Of a stretch of 64,000 nt of DNA, positions 7,459-14,352 are shown one piece after another. The notes below the pieces were generated by a model, which worked only from the letters and a program-made list of their open reading frames with translations, had not been told where the DNA came from and did not search any database. Position 1 is the first letter of the stretch, and each line of letters opens with the position of its first letter. The translations under genes were made by a program, and so were the position numbers. Source of the stretch: a phage; sequence record PZ386973.1, one strand, 5' to 3'.

Positions 7459-8853
7459 ATGTCTTTACAACTATTACGTAATACTCGAATCTTCGTGTCT
7501 ACGGTTAAGACTGGTCATAATAAGACCAACACGCAAGAGATTCTAGTTCAGGATGATATTTCTTGGGGTCAGGACAGTAACTCAACAGATATTACTGTTA
7601 ATGAAGCTGGTCCGCGTCCAACTCGTGGTTCTAAACGTTTTAACGACTCTTTAAACGCAGCTGAGTGGAGTTTTTCTACTTACATCCTACCGTATAAAGA
7701 TAAAACTACTAGCAAACAAATTGTTCCTGACTATATGTTATGGCATGCACTTTCTAGTGGTAAAGCTATTAACTTAGAAGGTAATACAGGGGCACACAAT
7801 AACACAACTAACTTCATGGTTAACTTCAAAGATAACTCCTATCATGAGTTAGCAATGTTACATATTTATATTCTGACTGATAAAGCATGGAGTTATATTG
7901 ATTCCTGTCAGATTAATCAGGCAGAAGTTAACGTTGATATCGAAGATATTGGCCGTGTAACTTGGTCTGGTAATGGTAATCAGCTTATTCCTCTGGATGA
8001 GCAACCCTTTGATCCGGATGAAATAGGTATTGATGATGAAACTTATATGACTATCCAGGGTTCTTATATTAAGAACAAACTAACGATCTTGAAGATCAAG
8101 GACATGGATACCAATAAGTCTTATGACATACCGATTACCGGTGGTACTTTTACTATTAACAACAACATTACTTATTTAACACCTAATGTAATGTCCCGTG
8201 TTACTATTCCAATTGGTTCCTTTACTGGTGCTTTTGAATTAACTGGTTCATTAACTGCTTATCTGAATGATAAATCTCTTGGTTCTATGGAACTATACAA
8301 AGATCTTATCAAAACTCTGAAGGTAGTTAACCGCTTCGAAATAGCTCTAGTACTCGGTGGCGAGTATGAGGATGAACGTCCTGCAGCTATTCTGGTAGCT
8401 AAACAAGCGCACGTTAACATCCCTACGATTGAGACTGATGATGTACTTGGTACATCAGTAGAGTTTAAGGCTATTCCGTCAGAGCTGGATGCTGGTGATG
8501 AAGGTTACTTAGGTTTCTCTAGTAAATATACTAAAACAACTATTAATAACTTGATTGTTAATGGTGATGGTGCTACTGATGCTGTAACTGCAATTACTGT
8601 TAAATCTGCCGGTGAGGCTACTTCTGTTCGGACTGGACAAACTCTTCAGATGAGCGTTGAAGTTGCTCCTTCTTCCGCAAGGAATAAGGATGTTATCTGG
8701 GCTATCACCGCCGGTGATGCAGCTACTATCAATGCAACAGGACTGTTAACAGCAGATGCTAGTAAAACAGGTGCGGTAACTGTTGAAGCTACGGCTAAAG
8801 ATGGCTCTGGTGTTAAAGGCACTAAAGTTATTACTGTGACAGCAGGTGGTTAA
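7459..8853 (+). CDS. Tail tube protein with C-terminal Ig-like (BIG2-type) domain (T5 pb6-like)
   Basis: 464 aa; C-terminal Ig-like segment (AITVKSAGEATSVRTGQTLQMSVEVAPSSARNKDVIWAITAGD...); GGAG RBS. Confidence 0.85.
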   Translation: MSLQLLRNTRIFVSTVKTGHNKTNTQEILVQDDISWGQDSNSTDITVNEAGPRPTRGSKRFNDSLNAAEWSFSTYILPYKDKTTSKQIVPDYMLWHALSSGKAINLEGNTGAHNNTTNFMVNFKDNSYHELAMLHIYILTDKAWSYIDSCQINQAEVNVDIEDIGRVTWSGNGNQLIPLDEQPFDPDEIGIDDETYMTIQGSYIKNKLTILKIKDMDTNKSYDIPITGGTFTINNNITYLTPNVMSRVTIPIGSFTGAFELTGSLTAYLNDKSLGSMELYKDLIKTLKVVNRFEIALVLGGEYEDERPAAILVAKQAHVNIPTIETDDVLGTSVEFKAIPSELDAGDEGYLGFSSKYTKTTINNLIVNGDGATDAVTAITVKSAGEATSVRTGQTLQMSVEVAPSSARNKDVIWAITAGDAATINATGLLTADASKTGAVTVEATAKDGSGVKGTKVITVTAGG

Positions 8854-8857
8854 TTAA

Positions 8858-9754
8858 ATGTTTTATTCTCTCATGCGAGAGTCTAAAATAGTTGTTGAGT
8901 ATGATGGTAGAGGGTATCATTTCGATGCCCTCTCTAACTATGACGCTAGTACGTCTTTTCAAGAGTTTAAAACTCTTAGACGTACTATTCATAATCGTAC
9001 AAACTATGCAGACTCTATTATTAATGCTCAAGATCCTTCATCTATTTCATTGGCAATAAATTTCAGTACTACGCTTATTGAATCTAACTTCTTTGATTGG
9101 ATGGGATTCACGCGTGAGGGAAATTCTTTATTTTTGCCAAGAAATACTCCCAATATTGAACCTATTATGTTCAATATGTATATTATTAATCATAATAATA
9201 GCTGTATTTATTTCGAAAACTGTTATGTATCAACGGTTGATTTTTCTTTAGATAAGAGTATACCGATCCTAAATGTTGGTATTGAGTCTGGAAAATTCTC
9301 TGAAGTATCTACTTTCCGCGATGGATACACAATTACACAGGGTGAAGTACTTCCATATAGCCCTCCAGCTGTGTATACTAATAGCGCACCATTGCCTGCA
9401 TTAGTTTCAGCATCTATGTCCTTCCAGCAACAATGTTCCTGGAGAGAAGATAGAAGTATATTTGATATAAATAAAGTTTACACTAATAAACGAGCTTATG
9501 TCAATGAGATGAATGCTTCCGCAACGCTATCTTTCTACTACGTTAAGAGATTGGTAGGGGATAAGTTCTTGAATCTAGATCCTGAAACAAGAACTCCACT
9601 AATTATTAAAAATAAATATGTTTCTATAACATTCCCTTTAGCACGTATTTCAAAACGCCTAAACTTCTCAGATTTGTATCAGGTAGAATATGATGTAATT
9701 CCTACTGCTGATTCAGATCCTGTAGAAATAAACTTCTTTGGAGAAAGAAAATAA
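8858..9754 (+). CDS. Minor tail protein (possibly tube-like baseplate protein)
   Basis: 298-aa ORF between tail tube and chaperone/tape-measure genes. Confidence 0.5.
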   Translation: MFYSLMRESKIVVEYDGRGYHFDALSNYDASTSFQEFKTLRRTIHNRTNYADSIINAQDPSSISLAINFSTTLIESNFFDWMGFTREGNSLFLPRNTPNIEPIMFNMYIINHNNSCIYFENCYVSTVDFSLDKSIPILNVGIESGKFSEVSTFRDGYTITQGEVLPYSPPAVYTNSAPLPALVSASMSFQQQCSWREDRSIFDINKVYTNKRAYVNEMNASATLSFYYVKRLVGDKFLNLDPETRTPLIIKNKYVSITFPLARISKRLNFSDLYQVEYDVIPTADSDPVEINFFGERK

Positions 9755-10158
9755 TGATTAACTTAAAAGATATTACCCTAGAAACTCGTACTGTCACTCT
9801 TTCATACCCAGGTATGCCGAACTTTAAGCTAGAGCTTAATTATATGTCTCGTGCTACTTCTAAGCGAGTTATCACTTCTGCTAAGCGTGACGAGTGGGTT
9901 AACGGTACTTTGATTCAGGTACAGGATGATGATAAGTTTATTGAAGCTTTCGTTGATGCTGCGATTAAAGGTTGGACTGGTTTGACTGTAGGTGACGTTG
10001 AAAAACTGATGCTGATTGAAACAGATGCTGATCCTGTTACTGAGGTTCCATTTAGTCGTGATAATGCTGTAATGCTTATGCAGAACTCTGCTGCGTTTGA
10101 TTCTTGGATCAACCAGACAGTGTTCCATTTAGACACTTTTCGTAGCTCAAAAGCGTAA
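9754..10158 (+). CDS. Putative tail assembly chaperone (G-like)
   Basis: 134-aa acidic protein immediately upstream of tape measure gene, the conserved chaperone position. Confidence 0.5.
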   Translation: MINLKDITLETRTVTLSYPGMPNFKLELNYMSRATSKRVITSAKRDEWVNGTLIQVQDDDKFIEAFVDAAIKGWTGLTVGDVEKLMLIETDADPVTEVPFSRDNAVMLMQNSAAFDSWINQTVFHLDTFRSSKA

Positions 10159-10219
10159 AGAATTACTAGATGCTGTTGCTGACTTTGCCGATAAATGTAT
10201 TAAAAGCTCAGCATCTAAA

Positions 10220-10588
10220 ATGACTAAACAACAATATTTAATACTTTGTGAATCAATGGGTATAGAACCTGATCCTAAGGCTATGCCTGTTGAACTTGAA
10301 GATTTTCCACCTATTGTAGCTATTAGTATGAATATTTATAATAGTCTAGTTGACTGTTTCATACCTGGCGACTTTCCTATATTTATAGGCAAAGACAAAG
10401 CTGCTTTAGGTGTTTTATTCGATATTTATGGGATTACCGATCCTATAGAGAAAGAATTTGTTCTACACATCATCAATATATTTGATGCTAAAGCTGTAGA
10501 CGCTGCACGTAAACGTGCTGAGAAGCATAAGCCGCAAAACGGTAGAATACCTAACGTTAAGCCGCACGCCAAATCTCGAGCACGGTAA
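10220..10588 (+). CDS. Hypothetical protein; possible frameshift extension of the upstream chaperone
   Basis: 122-aa ORF in +1 frame relative to 9754..10158; that frame is open from 10133; no SD upstream of ATG 10220. Confidence 0.45.
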   Translation: MTKQQYLILCESMGIEPDPKAMPVELEDFPPIVAISMNIYNSLVDCFIPGDFPIFIGKDKAALGVLFDIYGITDPIEKEFVLHIINIFDAKAVDAARKRAEKHKPQNGRIPNVKPHAKSRAR

Positions 10589-10623
10589 AAGTTTCCTCCA
10601 ATGGGCGTTCCACGATGAGGCTT

Positions 10624-10657
10624 GGCTCTGGGTGATTTGCCCAGAGCCTTTTTTATT
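10624..10657 (+). terminator. Intrinsic terminator upstream of tape measure gene
   Basis: GGCTCTGGG-loop-CCCAGAGCC followed by TTTTTTATT. Confidence 0.75.
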
Positions 10658-10671
10658 GGGAAAAATAAAAT

Positions 10672-13600
10672 ATGACTGATAAGCTAATACGAGAATTACT
10701 AATAGACGTTAAACAGAAGGGGGCAACCCGTACTGCAAAGTCTATTGAAAACGTATCTGATGCATTAGAAAATGCTGCTGCTGCTTCCGAACTGACAAAT
10801 GAACAGTTAGGTAAAATGCCCAAAACTCTATACTCCATTGAGAGGGCAGCAGATAGAGCAGCAAAAAGTCTTACTAAAATGCAGGCTAGTAGGGGTATGC
10901 TTAGTGTTACTAAATCTATTAATGATATAGGAGCTAAGCTGGACGACCTTGCTATTACAATGATCGAGGTAGCTGATAAGCTAGAAGTTGGATTCGATGG
11001 GGTTTCTAGATCTGTTAAAACAATGGGCAATGATGTTGCAGCTGCAACAGAGAAAGTTCAAGATAGGTTATACGATACTAATAGGGCTTTAGGAGGTACG
11101 GCTAAAGGCTTTAATGATACTACTGGTGCTGCTGGTAGAGCTTCTAGAGCTATTGGTAATACTTCTGGTTCAGCACGCGGTGCAACTCGTGATTTTGCAG
11201 CAATGGCTAAGATTGGTGGTAGTTTACCTATTATGTATGCAGCTCTTGCTTCCAACATCTTCGTTTTGCAATCTGCATTCGAACAACTTAAACTAGGTGA
11301 TCAGCTAAATCGCCTAGAAAAATTTGGTGTTATAGTAGGTACTCAGACAGGTACTCCTGTTCAGTCTCTTGCTAGATCACTACAAGAAGCTGCCGGATAC
11401 GCTATCTCCTTTGAAGAAGCAATGAGGCAAGCATCCTCTGCTTCTGCGTACGGATTTGATGCTGAACAACTTAATAAATTTGGTCTAGTAGCTCGTCGTG
11501 CTGCTGCTGTTCTTGGCGTTGATATGACTGATGCACTTAACCGTGTAATCAAGGGTGTATCAAAACAGGAAATCGAACTTCTGGATGAACTTGGTGTTAC
11601 TATTCGTCTTAATGACGCATATGCTGACTATGTTAAACAGCTAAATGCTGCTAACACTGGTATAACATATAATATTAATAGCCTTACTACCTTCCAGAAA
11701 CAGCAAGCGTATGCTAATGCTGTTATAGCAGAGTCTACTAAACGTTTTGGTTACTTAGATGAAGTTTTACGTGCAACTCCGTGGGAGCAGTTTGCTGCTA
11801 ACGCAGATGCTGCACTAAGAACAATACAACAAGCTGCTGCTAAGTACTTAGGGCCAGTAATTGATGCTATCAACACAGTATTTTATACTTCTCAGGCTTC
11901 TGTATCCGCTGAAGCAGCTAGAGCTCAAGAAAAAACTAATAGACAGATAGATCCTACCAACGTTGGTGCTGTTGCTTTAAGTTTGGCTGCTTCTGAAGAG
12001 GGCTACAATAAAGCATTAGATATGTATAAGGAATCTCTTGATAAGCGTAATAAGCTAAAATCCGAATTTGATAAACGAATGGAGCAAGCGGATTTCTATA
12101 CAAGATTAGCCATACGTCAAGTTGGTGAAGGTATTCCTGTTGGTCTTGCTGCTGCTGGTGCTTCCGAAGCTAATAAAAAGTTTGTAGAAGAAACAGCGGC
12201 TATGGGTCTACAAGTAACTAGACTTGGTAAGGAAGTAGAGGATTCTACAGAGAACCTCAATGCTTGGAAATCAGCGTATCAAGCTGCTGGAGCTGCTGCT
12301 GCAAAAGCTAATCCAGAGTTCCAGAAACAGATTAATCTACAGAAAGATACTACGGACCCTGATGCTGTATACGATTTTAACTCTACTGTATTAAAAGGAC
12401 TAACTGAACAACAAAAAGCATATAATCAGACTAAGAAAACTGCTAGTGGCCTAGCTAATGATATACAGAACGTTGCTCAGAATACAGATACCGCTGCTAA
12501 AACTAGTGCTACACTAGCAGATGCTATAAAAAATATAGAGTCACTATCTCAAGGTACTGGTAAAAGTGCAGATGAGTATGTTAAAAACCTTAACCTGGGT
12601 TATAACACCCTGTCTGAAATGAAAACTACATCCCAGGCTCTATCTGAGTACGTTAAACTAACTGGTAATGAAACTAAAAATCAGTTAGCAGTTCAACAGA
12701 AAATAGCTGATGTGTATAATCAAACTAAGGATAAGGAAAAAGCTCAGGAAGCTGGTAGACGTTTAGAGTTACAACAGTTAGAGGAGCAAGAAGCTGCTTT
12801 ACGCCGTGTTCTTCAAACAAACCAGGGAAATAAAGCTGTTGAGAAAGAAATTGAAAAAATTCAGCTGGAGAAACTTAAACTTACCAATCAGGGTATGGAA
12901 GCTCAGAAGAAGGTCAAGGATTACACAGATAAAATTCTTGGTGTAGATCGTGAGATAGCTCTTCTGAATGACCGTACTATGACTGCTACTCAATATAGAT
13001 TAGCTCAGTTAAAGCTAGAACTAACTATAGAGAAAGAGAAGTACGAATGGTATACAAAACAAGCGGATAAACAGAAAGAGGCGGAACAGTCTAGACGTGC
13101 TCAAGCACAAATAAGTAGAGAAATATGGGAAGCAGAAAAACAAGCTACCTCAACCCATGTATCTGCTCTCATGGATGCACTAGAAGTTAGCCAAACACAA
13201 AGAAATGTTACTGGCCAATCTCAAATTCTTACGGAAAGATTATCCATTCTGCAGCAACAGCTGGAACTATCTAAGGGTAACACGGAAGAAGAGCTTAAAT
13301 ATCGTAATGAGATTTATAAAACTGCTGCTGCTCTAGAACAACTTAGAAAGCAGAGGGATAGTCAGATGCAGCAACAGGTAGGATCCTCTGTGGGTGCTGT
13401 GTACACGCCTACAACGGGGTTATCTGGAGAAGATAAAGATTTTGCTGATATGCAAAATAGAATGGCTTCTTATGATCAGGCAATCTCTAAGCTGTCTGAA
13501 TTAAATTCTGAAGCAACCGCTGTGGCTCAGAGTATGGGTAATTTAACCAACTCTATGATTCAATTCTCTCAGGGATCTTTAGATACTACGTCTATGATTG

Positions 13601-14352
13601 CTTCTGGTATGCAAACTGTGGCTTCTATGATTCAATATAGTACTAGTCAGCAGGTTAGTGCAATTGATCAGGCTATTGCCGCAGAACAGAAGCGTGATGG
13701 TAAATCTGAGGCATCTAAAGCTAAACTGAAGAAATTAGAAGCTGAAAAGCTTAAAATTCAACAGGATGCAGCTAAGAAACAGATTATCATTCAGACAGCA
13801 GTAGCAGTAATGCAAGCAGCAACAGCTGTACCATATCCGTTCTCTATTCCTCTAATGGTGGCGGCAGGTTTGGCAGGTGCACTAGCTCTTGCTCAGGCAT
13901 CTTCTGCATCTGGTATGTCTTCTATCGCTGACTCTGGAGCAGATACTACCCAGTATTTAACTCTAGGTGAACGACAGAAGAACGTTGATGTATCTATGCA
14001 AGCCAGTTCAGGAGAACTGTCCTACCTACGTGGTGATAAAGGTATTGGTAATGCTAACTCCTTTGTTCCGCGTGCTGAGGGTGGTATGATGTATCCTGGA
14101 GTAAGCTATCAAATGGGTGAGCACGGTACCGAGGTAATTACTCCTATGGTTCCTATGAAAGCTACGCCTAATGATCAGCTTTCCGAAGGATCAAGGTCCT
14201 CTTCTGGTAGACCTATTATCCTGAATATCAGCACTATGGATGCAGCAAGCTTCAGAGATTTTGCATCGAATAATAGTACTGCTTTCAGAGATGCCGTGGA
14301 ACTGGCTCTTAATGAGAATGGGACCACCCTGAAATCTCTTGGTAATTCTTAA
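10672..14352 (+). CDS. Tape measure protein (T5 pb2-like)
   Basis: 1226 aa, long Ala/Gln/Lys-rich coiled-coil stretches, Gly/Ala-rich hydrophobic segment near C-terminus (AVPYPFSIPLMVAAGLAGALALAQA). Confidence 0.9.
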   Translation: MTDKLIRELLIDVKQKGATRTAKSIENVSDALENAAAASELTNEQLGKMPKTLYSIERAADRAAKSLTKMQASRGMLSVTKSINDIGAKLDDLAITMIEVADKLEVGFDGVSRSVKTMGNDVAAATEKVQDRLYDTNRALGGTAKGFNDTTGAAGRASRAIGNTSGSARGATRDFAAMAKIGGSLPIMYAALASNIFVLQSAFEQLKLGDQLNRLEKFGVIVGTQTGTPVQSLARSLQEAAGYAISFEEAMRQASSASAYGFDAEQLNKFGLVARRAAAVLGVDMTDALNRVIKGVSKQEIELLDELGVTIRLNDAYADYVKQLNAANTGITYNINSLTTFQKQQAYANAVIAESTKRFGYLDEVLRATPWEQFAANADAALRTIQQAAAKYLGPVIDAINTVFYTSQASVSAEAARAQEKTNRQIDPTNVGAVALSLAASEEGYNKALDMYKESLDKRNKLKSEFDKRMEQADFYTRLAIRQVGEGIPVGLAAAGASEANKKFVEETAAMGLQVTRLGKEVEDSTENLNAWKSAYQAAGAAAAKANPEFQKQINLQKDTTDPDAVYDFNSTVLKGLTEQQKAYNQTKKTASGLANDIQNVAQNTDTAAKTSATLADAIKNIESLSQGTGKSADEYVKNLNLGYNTLSEMKTTSQALSEYVKLTGNETKNQLAVQQKIADVYNQTKDKEKAQEAGRRLELQQLEEQEAALRRVLQTNQGNKAVEKEIEKIQLEKLKLTNQGMEAQKKVKDYTDKILGVDREIALLNDRTMTATQYRLAQLKLELTIEKEKYEWYTKQADKQKEAEQSRRAQAQISREIWEAEKQATSTHVSALMDALEVSQTQRNVTGQSQILTERLSILQQQLELSKGNTEEELKYRNEIYKTAAALEQLRKQRDSQMQQQVGSSVGAVYTPTTGLSGEDKDFADMQNRMASYDQAISKLSELNSEATAVAQSMGNLTNSMIQFSQGSLDTTSMIASGMQTVASMIQYSTSQQVSAIDQAIAAEQKRDGKSEASKAKLKKLEAEKLKIQQDAAKKQIIIQTAVAVMQAATAVPYPFSIPLMVAAGLAGALALAQASSASGMSSIADSGADTTQYLTLGERQKNVDVSMQASSGELSYLRGDKGIGNANSFVPRAEGGMMYPGVSYQMGEHGTEVITPMVPMKATPNDQLSEGSRSSSGRPIILNISTMDAASFRDFASNNSTAFRDAVELALNENGTTLKSLGNS

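Follow-up and report, generated by a model that had tools for sequence, protein, structure and literature searches.

The 64,000-nucleotide (nt) stretch of phage DNA analyzed here (sequence record PZ386973.1; hereafter, the window) belongs to a T5-like phage and carries two open reading frames (ORFs) just upstream of the tape measure gene: ORF1 (9754..10158; 134 amino acids [aa], ATG start) and ORF2 (10220..10588; 122 aa as annotated, ATG start). Comparison with related phages strongly supports a programmed +1 ribosomal frameshift that would join ORF1 and ORF2 into a single tail assembly chaperone. It appears to be a +1 variant of the known G/GT chaperone frameshift, conserved across the Demerecviridae and largely unannotated. 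All features described below lie on the plus strand.

In the mechanism we propose, ORF1 and ORF2 would be the G and T parts of a tail assembly chaperone pair like that of phage lambda. The majority of ribosomes would end at the ORF1 stop codon, yielding by standard decoding the 134-aa G-type protein. In a minority, peptidyl-tRNA-Phe on UUU (10138-10140), with CGU in the A site, would slip by +1 to UUC (10139-10141), which is a better pairing than UUU for the anticodon GAA; base 10141 would be skipped as a codon start, the next codon would be GUA (10142-10144), and +1 reading would continue to 10588. Conceptual translation of 9754..10140 joined to 10142..10588 (span, 9754..10588) predicts a GT-type fusion of 277 aa, whose junction would read ...HLDTF/VAQKRKELL...; the junction stretch predicted for a +1 shift at UUU_C is ...SWINQTVFHLDTFVAQK. 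If the pair works as in lambda, the tape measure protein would be coated by the G part that both products share, while the T part of the fusion would recruit the tube protein. We regard this account, a G/GT pair expressed through a +1 slip of tRNA-Phe at UUU-CGU, as probable.

The original prediction had suggested a possible +1 frameshift between the two ORFs, which it placed in the tail chaperone position between tube and tape measure genes; the position is as described, and the coordinates given for both ORFs were all right. Also as predicted, ORF2 lies in the +1 frame relative to ORF1, and this frame is open from 10133. A TAG at 10130-10132 closes it upstream and the frame-0 TAA of ORF1 lies at 10156-10158, so that any shift from ORF1 to ORF2 must fall within 10133..10158; this 26-nt overlap comprises the last 7 sense codons of ORF1 plus its stop. 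The −1 frame in the window is closed (7 codons), leaving +1 or −2 as the shift needed, and the overlap contains no canonical −1 heptamer (X_XXY_YYZ). As in lambda-type pairs, the downstream frame extends back into the end of the upstream ORF and has no start signals of its own: ATG, GTG, and TTG do not occur in the +1 frame between 10133 and 10219, and the 25 nt upstream of ATG 10220 (atgtattaaaagctcagcatctaaa) include no GGA, GAG, or AGG, in agreement with the earlier statement that ORF2 has no recognizable Shine-Dalgarno (SD) sequence. In contrast, GGAG is present ahead of both ORF1 and the tube gene. Alone, a 29-codon open stretch in AT-rich DNA is unremarkable; it gains its significance from comparative data rather than from its length.

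The apparent spacer between the overlap and ORF2 (10142..10219) is coding in the +1 frame, as indicated by codon periodicity, homologs, and a predicted helix; it encodes the N-terminal helix of the T part, VAQKRKELLDAVADFADKCIKSSASK. We compared 33 distinct T5-like and Epseptimavirus sequences in an ungapped alignment spanning 835 nt. Across 10142-10219, the variable sites divide 5/1/16 among the first, second, and third codon positions of the +1 frame, compared to 26/4/88 in ORF1 and 18/12/73 in ORF2 of the same alignment; the binomial probability that at least 16 of the 22 variable sites in the spacer fall at one codon position is 1.8e-4. Nearly all of the spacer changes are synonymous in the +1 frame, including a switch between the serine codons AGC and TCC. 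Distant T-type proteins that were called from further upstream (P0004, P0006, and P0107) align with the spacer from fusion residue 128, and many homologs have Ile, Val, or Leu in place of the Met encoded at 10220. A structural model of the +1-frame part (predicted local distance difference test score [pLDDT], 87.5) opens with a confident helix encoded by the spacer. Because the spacer is coding in the +1 frame and lacks a start codon, ribosomes must enter it from ORF1; judging from sequence, ORF2 is probably not initiated independently at ATG 10220. In the records of Klebsiella phage vB_Kpn24-P3 (L112) and Vibrio phage Gary (L113), the second chaperone coding sequence (CDS) is called from a non-canonical start inside the overlap; such upstream-extended calls are an annotation symptom of the coding spacer.

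Patterns of synonymous change indicate where in the overlap the frame is switched. Among the 33 T5-like sequences, the changes seen at 10131 and 10134 leave the frame-0 protein unaltered but would introduce a stop codon or an amino acid replacement in the +1 frame. At 10147 the reverse holds: a common T/C polymorphism there is silent in the +1 frame (GCT/GCC) and exchanges Ser and Pro in frame 0; an A/G difference at 10144 between the T5-like and Klebsiella phages is likewise synonymous in the +1 frame only. This pattern places the frame change in ACT TTT CGT AGC (10135-10146), which is invariant in the 33 sequences. The proposed +1 shift site is ACU UUU CGU A (10135..10144): it combines the invariant motif and the switch in frame signature with the TTT-C conservation described below, and at 10135-10143 it has an in-phase UUU with CGN as the next codon and ORF2 downstream in the +1 frame. 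The original prediction had put the shift near the ORF1 stop codon, at TCA AAA GCG TAA. Its central idea, a shift into the +1 frame that joins both ORFs, was borne out, whereas the best-supported site lies five codons before the stop; divergent relatives, in which ORF1 ends TTT CGT TAA, lack the TCA AAA GCG TAA motif.

Both ORFs have strong matches among curated PHROG families (phrog_313 and phrog_3914), while sequence searches of Pfam, NCBIfam, and PDB gave no match. ORF1 aligns to positions 12-141 of phrog_313 ("tail assembly chaperone," 258 positions) and the extended ORF2 frame aligns to positions 170-258; ORF2 as annotated, which is the remainder of the T part, matches phrog_3914 and phrog_313. 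Since ORF1 and ORF2 match different halves of phrog_313, they behave as two halves of one family. The G part has the tail assembly chaperone fold. The model of the +1-frame part weakly resembles GT fusion chaperones annotated in phages Loki, Solomon, CcrColossus, and Scapp. A Foldseek search against PDB returned no significant match.

The comparison covered 106 chaperone loci, taken from IMG/VR contigs and cultured phages. In each of the 63 that have the +1 arrangement (27 distinct 21-nt contexts), an in-frame TTT is followed by C; the codon after TTT is CGT, CGA, or CGC in 61 of them and CAC in the other two. Cultured phages in this set include the T5-likes, Epseptimavirus, the Klebsiella Sugarland-like phages, Pectobacterium phage My1, Vibrio phages pVp-1, Achelous, D13, and valsw3 (four Vibrio genera), and Proteus phage 2; an uncultured clade is included as well, and protein identity goes down to about 30%. 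ORF1 of My1 and D13 ends TTT CGT TAA, and because it stops directly after TTT CGT, only UUU to UUC can re-pair one base downstream in the overlap of these phages. The remaining 43 loci have the −1 arrangement, and in every one the corresponding position holds an in-phase canonical heptamer: G_GGA_AAC, A_AAU_UUU, or A_AAA_AAC, the last being the motif proposed for phage Loki. That the slip motif matches the required direction across sister clades is the strongest comparative argument for programmed shifting.

Constraint on the Phe codon and on its neighbor follows the same division. Loci of the G_GGA_AAC group, whose slip site does not include the Phe codon, use either TTC or TTT for it; loci in which the slip site takes in this codon have TTT without exception (Fisher P of about 1e-3 on distinct contexts, with no correction for phylogeny). 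The Phe itself, F129, is invariant among 88 family representatives. After this Phe, the −1 clades carry Thr or Ser and the +1 clades carry Arg; since the −1 clades use Thr/Ser, Arg in the +1 clades reflects a nucleotide-level rather than a protein-level constraint. Moreover, AGR is never used after TTT in the +1 clades, though it accounts for 31% of Arg codons in the window. As in lambda-type systems, a conserved shift-prone site stands where the two conserved domains would be joined.

Several of the uncultured loci show variations on these motifs. In one clade of IMG/VR contigs (L087-L104; 51-63% identity), some loci (L087-L092) read GAA AAT TTT CGT and have the downstream ORF in the +1 frame, while their sisters (L093-L104) read GAA AAT TTT ACN and have it in the −1 frame. 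L087-L092 thus carry A_AAU_UUU and the +1 motif on one Phe codon, which suggests that direction flips easily or that slipping is bidirectional. Two contigs of the +1 type (L078 and L079) have TTT CAC (Phe-His) in place of TTT CGN, suggesting that only the C after UUU is indispensable. An uncultured clade of T5-sized phages (L042-L066; some contigs are about 100 kb) uses a canonical −1 site, G_GGA_AAC or A_AAU_UUU, and no cultured phage in INPHARED has a chaperone more than 39% identical to its own. Aeromonas phage AhSzq-1 (L009; NC_047949.1) was left out because its reading frames are broken. Hardly any genes are annotated in its record, a "partial genome," from the tail protein to the tape measure gene, and the broken chaperone region is likely a sequence-quality problem. 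An alignment-based search for loci found no stretch that was conserved enough. The P0015 query retrieved 0 loci and the Klebsiella query only two.

The idea of a fusion is not wholly new, as annotators have already inferred a G-T fusion in a T5-like phage. The record of Salmonella phage Shivani (KP143763.1) contains a two-piece CDS for a 277-aa "tape measure chaperone" (AJA73579.1/YP_009194776.1), which joins the same two orthologous Tequintavirus ORFs, with a T part that is 99% identical. The joins differ: an exact-sequence look-up gave FRSSK/KRKELL as the Shivani junction, meaning that AAA (equivalent to 10150-10152 in the window) is read and two bases are then re-read (−2), at a site that is unconserved outside the T5-likes. 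The Shivani CDS is the only fusion among 40 members examined of a 117-member cluster. The Shivani genome announcement is silent on the join, and most later T5-like records do not copy it. We also considered a 94-aa predicted protein (P0003, containing ...FRSSKRKLLDAV...), the single hit that matches across the G/T junction in one frame, but rejected it as a natural fusion: it is missing one residue, has extra indels, and has an unrelated C terminus. It is probably an indel-ridden assembly.

A number of observations weigh against a +1 slip of tRNA-Phe at UUU_C, some by favoring another explanation. The evidence is comparative throughout. The frame relation alone cannot tell +1 from −2; re-pairing favors +1, which would bring the tRNA onto UUC, versus CUU or ACU for −2. 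Within the T5-likes, placement of the frame change before 10147 depends, rather thinly, on one polymorphism and one T5-versus-Klebsiella difference (10144). In-frame TTT_CGN occurs 7 more times in the other ORFs of the window (8 including the shift site, versus 13.1 expected). Of the Arg codons in the window's ORFs, CGT is used most (401/825), and it is a major codon in E. coli as well. The A-site CGN is therefore not the rare or slow codon of other UUU_CGN-type sites, and a "hungry A-site codon" stimulus is not evident. We found no SD-like element upstream of TTT in any lineage examined and no consistently placed downstream structure. The site does not resemble that of the release factor 2 gene (prfB) either, where the P-site codon immediately precedes a stop and an SD-like stimulator lies 3 nt upstream: here the stop codon is five codons downstream in the T5-likes, and no lineage has a GGAGG-like element upstream of TTT. 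The window contains no tRNA genes.

Of the points that favor other explanations, two concern the AAA codon at which the Shivani CDS is joined. Recoding could occur at TCA AAA G (10147-10153), either as a +1 slip of tRNA-Lys from AAA to AAG at AAA_G (10150..10153) or as a −2 step of the Shivani type. AAA and AAG re-pair well, tRNA-Lys is known to be slippery, and AAA_G is invariant in the 33 T5-like sequences, giving the overlap a second site that is competent for re-pairing. The junction of AJA73579.1, the only database annotation of the fusion, lies here, as did the site to which the original prediction pointed. Still, we consider recoding at this site unlikely. None of the divergent +1 lineages has AAA_G, including My1, D13, pVp-1, Achelous, and Proteus phage 2. 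The Klebsiella phages read AAA_T or AAA_C in its place, and in My1 and D13 ORF1 has already stopped right after TTT CGT. The T/C polymorphism at 10147 and the A/G difference at 10144, both synonymous in the +1 frame only, argue for a frame change upstream of AAA, and a −2 step would need tRNA-Lys to re-pair with CAA.

Two further explanations dispense with a translational shift. If there were no recoding, ORF2 would be translated separately, with initiation at ATG 10220 or reinitiation downstream of the ORF1 stop codon. The T5 RefSeq record, BF23, Sepoy, and many others do annotate two CDSs, and no natural in-frame G-T fusion was found among the best 150 family representatives. A genome announcement (PMC6256483) that cites Zivanovic 2014 describes the chaperone of phage Sugarland as having, "similar to T5," no predicted frameshift signal. 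Separate translation is nonetheless very improbable given that coding periodicity and amino acid conservation extend 78 nt upstream of ATG 10220 without a start codon, that ORF2 lacks an SD sequence and its Met is replaced in many homologs, and that the frame relation and direction-matched slip motifs are kept over the 106 loci. Comparison of frame relationships in related phages, one of the checks named in the original prediction, thus gave a conserved frame relation and slip motif and an unconserved ORF2 ATG. The other explanation is a change at the RNA level, in which transcriptional slippage on the T run that coincides with the slip site (ACTTTTC) would delete one U. However, the run consists of 4 T's here and of 3 in most +1 lineages (AAC TTT CG), runs of 3-4 T's are far below the lengths known for polymerase slippage, and it is the C after TTT, not the length of the T run, that is conserved. 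This explanation can be considered extremely remote. Thus, the −2 mechanism and transcriptional slippage are both unlikely, on grounds of re-pairing and run length, respectively.

A +1 slip at UUU_C has parallels in several known systems. In lambda, gpG and gpGT are produced by a programmed −1 shift at G_GGA_AAG (Levin 1993; Xu, Hendrix & Duda 2004, 2013, 2014, summarized in PMC5009743). As in lambda, the two ORFs here lie directly upstream of the tape measure gene, and ribosomes would enter the second, which has no start of its own, through an infrequent shift close to the 3′ end of the first. In its fold, the G-like part is related to the HK97 chaperone. In addition, uncultured relatives within the T5-type chaperone family use G_GGA_AAC, which is nearly the lambda heptamer. 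Unlike lambda, which uses −1 and a tandem X_XXY_YYZ heptamer, the phage considered here would use +1 and a single P-site codon, UUU_C, and the T5-type chaperones have no Pfam-level sequence similarity to lambda G or T. A +1 shift in a chaperone pair also has a precedent in the haloarchaeal myovirus HSTV-2 (PMC5009743); its proteins and hosts are unrelated to those described here and no slip motif is documented as common to both, but it shows that the G/GT device tolerates a +1 solution.

The motif itself is best known from influenza A virus PA-X, whose +1 shift at UCC_UUU_CGU is well established (Firth 2012, cited in PMC5009743); related UUU_CGN sites occur in chronic bee paralysis virus, Lake Sinai virus, and the Amalgaviridae (PMC5009743). 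The UUU_CGN core and the +1 direction are identical to those proposed here, and My1 even has UCC UUU CGU; in both cases there is no obvious stimulatory structure and a low efficiency is expected. The difference is that translation is eukaryotic there and bacterial here. The kinetic basis may differ too, because CGU is rare in influenza hosts and is the commonest Arg codon here. In E. coli, sites at which UUU is followed by a pyrimidine have reportedly been described as prone to +1 shifts, by Fu and Parker in 1994 (argI) and by Schwartz and Curran in 1997. Such behavior of the host ribosome would provide a background level of +1 slipping by tRNA-Phe, from UUU to UUC. Those E. coli events are translational errors, whereas the conserved site here gives access to a conserved domain of 148 residues. 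Taking these comparisons together, we lean toward the view that UUU_C(GN) is a maintained bacterial +1 signal, Demerecviridae-wide and in many uncultured relatives, that works without a rare A-site codon or a recognizable stimulator. Its Phe codon doubles as the 3′ half of A_AAU_UUU, so that a one-base indel downstream would flip the direction between −1 and +1, and some loci (GAA AAT TTT CGT) may shift both ways.

The gene order around the pair is that of a lambda-type G/GT locus: tube genes, ORF1, ORF2, tape measure gene. Directly upstream lies a block of two tube genes (7459..9754), encoding the pb6 tail tube protein (7459..8853) and the baseplate tube protein p140 (8858..9754; Pfam Baseplate_Tube_p140); the block matches phrog_3575, Pfam Big_2, and Pfam Baseplate_Tube_p140. 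The tape measure gene (10672..14352) encodes a pb2 homolog of 1,226 aa (Pfam TMP_N and TMP_C; phrog_3779), which is presumed to be the client of both chaperones. Over positions 9700-10700, identity to Escherichia phages VAH1 and BF23 is 96-99%, and megablast-level matches were found in 445 phage records. Between the chaperone and tape measure genes is a strong hairpin resembling an intrinsic terminator (10624-10657), with 11 pairs followed by a T run (the hairpin itself is at 10624-10648); terminators are annotated at the equivalent place in BF23 and T5. In T5, an endonuclease gene (T5.141) sits between this terminator and pb2; it is missing from both the window and BF23.

The coding spacer also contains a hairpin (10167-10217; fold z-score, −2.98) with a perfect 9-bp stem formed by TAGATGCTG and CAGCATCTA. 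It starts 26 nt after the slip site and ends 2 nt before ATG 10220. Among the T5-likes, one sequence has a compensatory change from U-A to C-G and three have U-A changed to a U.G wobble; the hairpin is not conserved in divergent lineages. Given its distance of 26 nt downstream and its lack of conservation in other lineages, we do not claim it as a stimulator of the shift, and it is possibly irrelevant. The BF23 record puts a "promoter, absent in T5" over this stretch, where we found no sigma-70-like site.

T5 is a main model for the structure and assembly of siphophage tails, yet its reference genome, like the majority of some 900 related records, shows the chaperone ORFs as two separate proteins. 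If the +1 shift proposed here is correct, the T-domain protein would be 277 aa long and would start at ORF1, and the 122-aa product in the annotation is probably not real. Pipelines for annotation that seek only −1 heptamers would overlook a recoding event found throughout the family. For the UUU_CGN motif known from influenza, there would be a bacterial counterpart readily amenable to E. coli genetics, and the family would provide natural examples of −1 to +1 switching at a single codon, from which to learn what sets the direction and efficiency of frameshifting.

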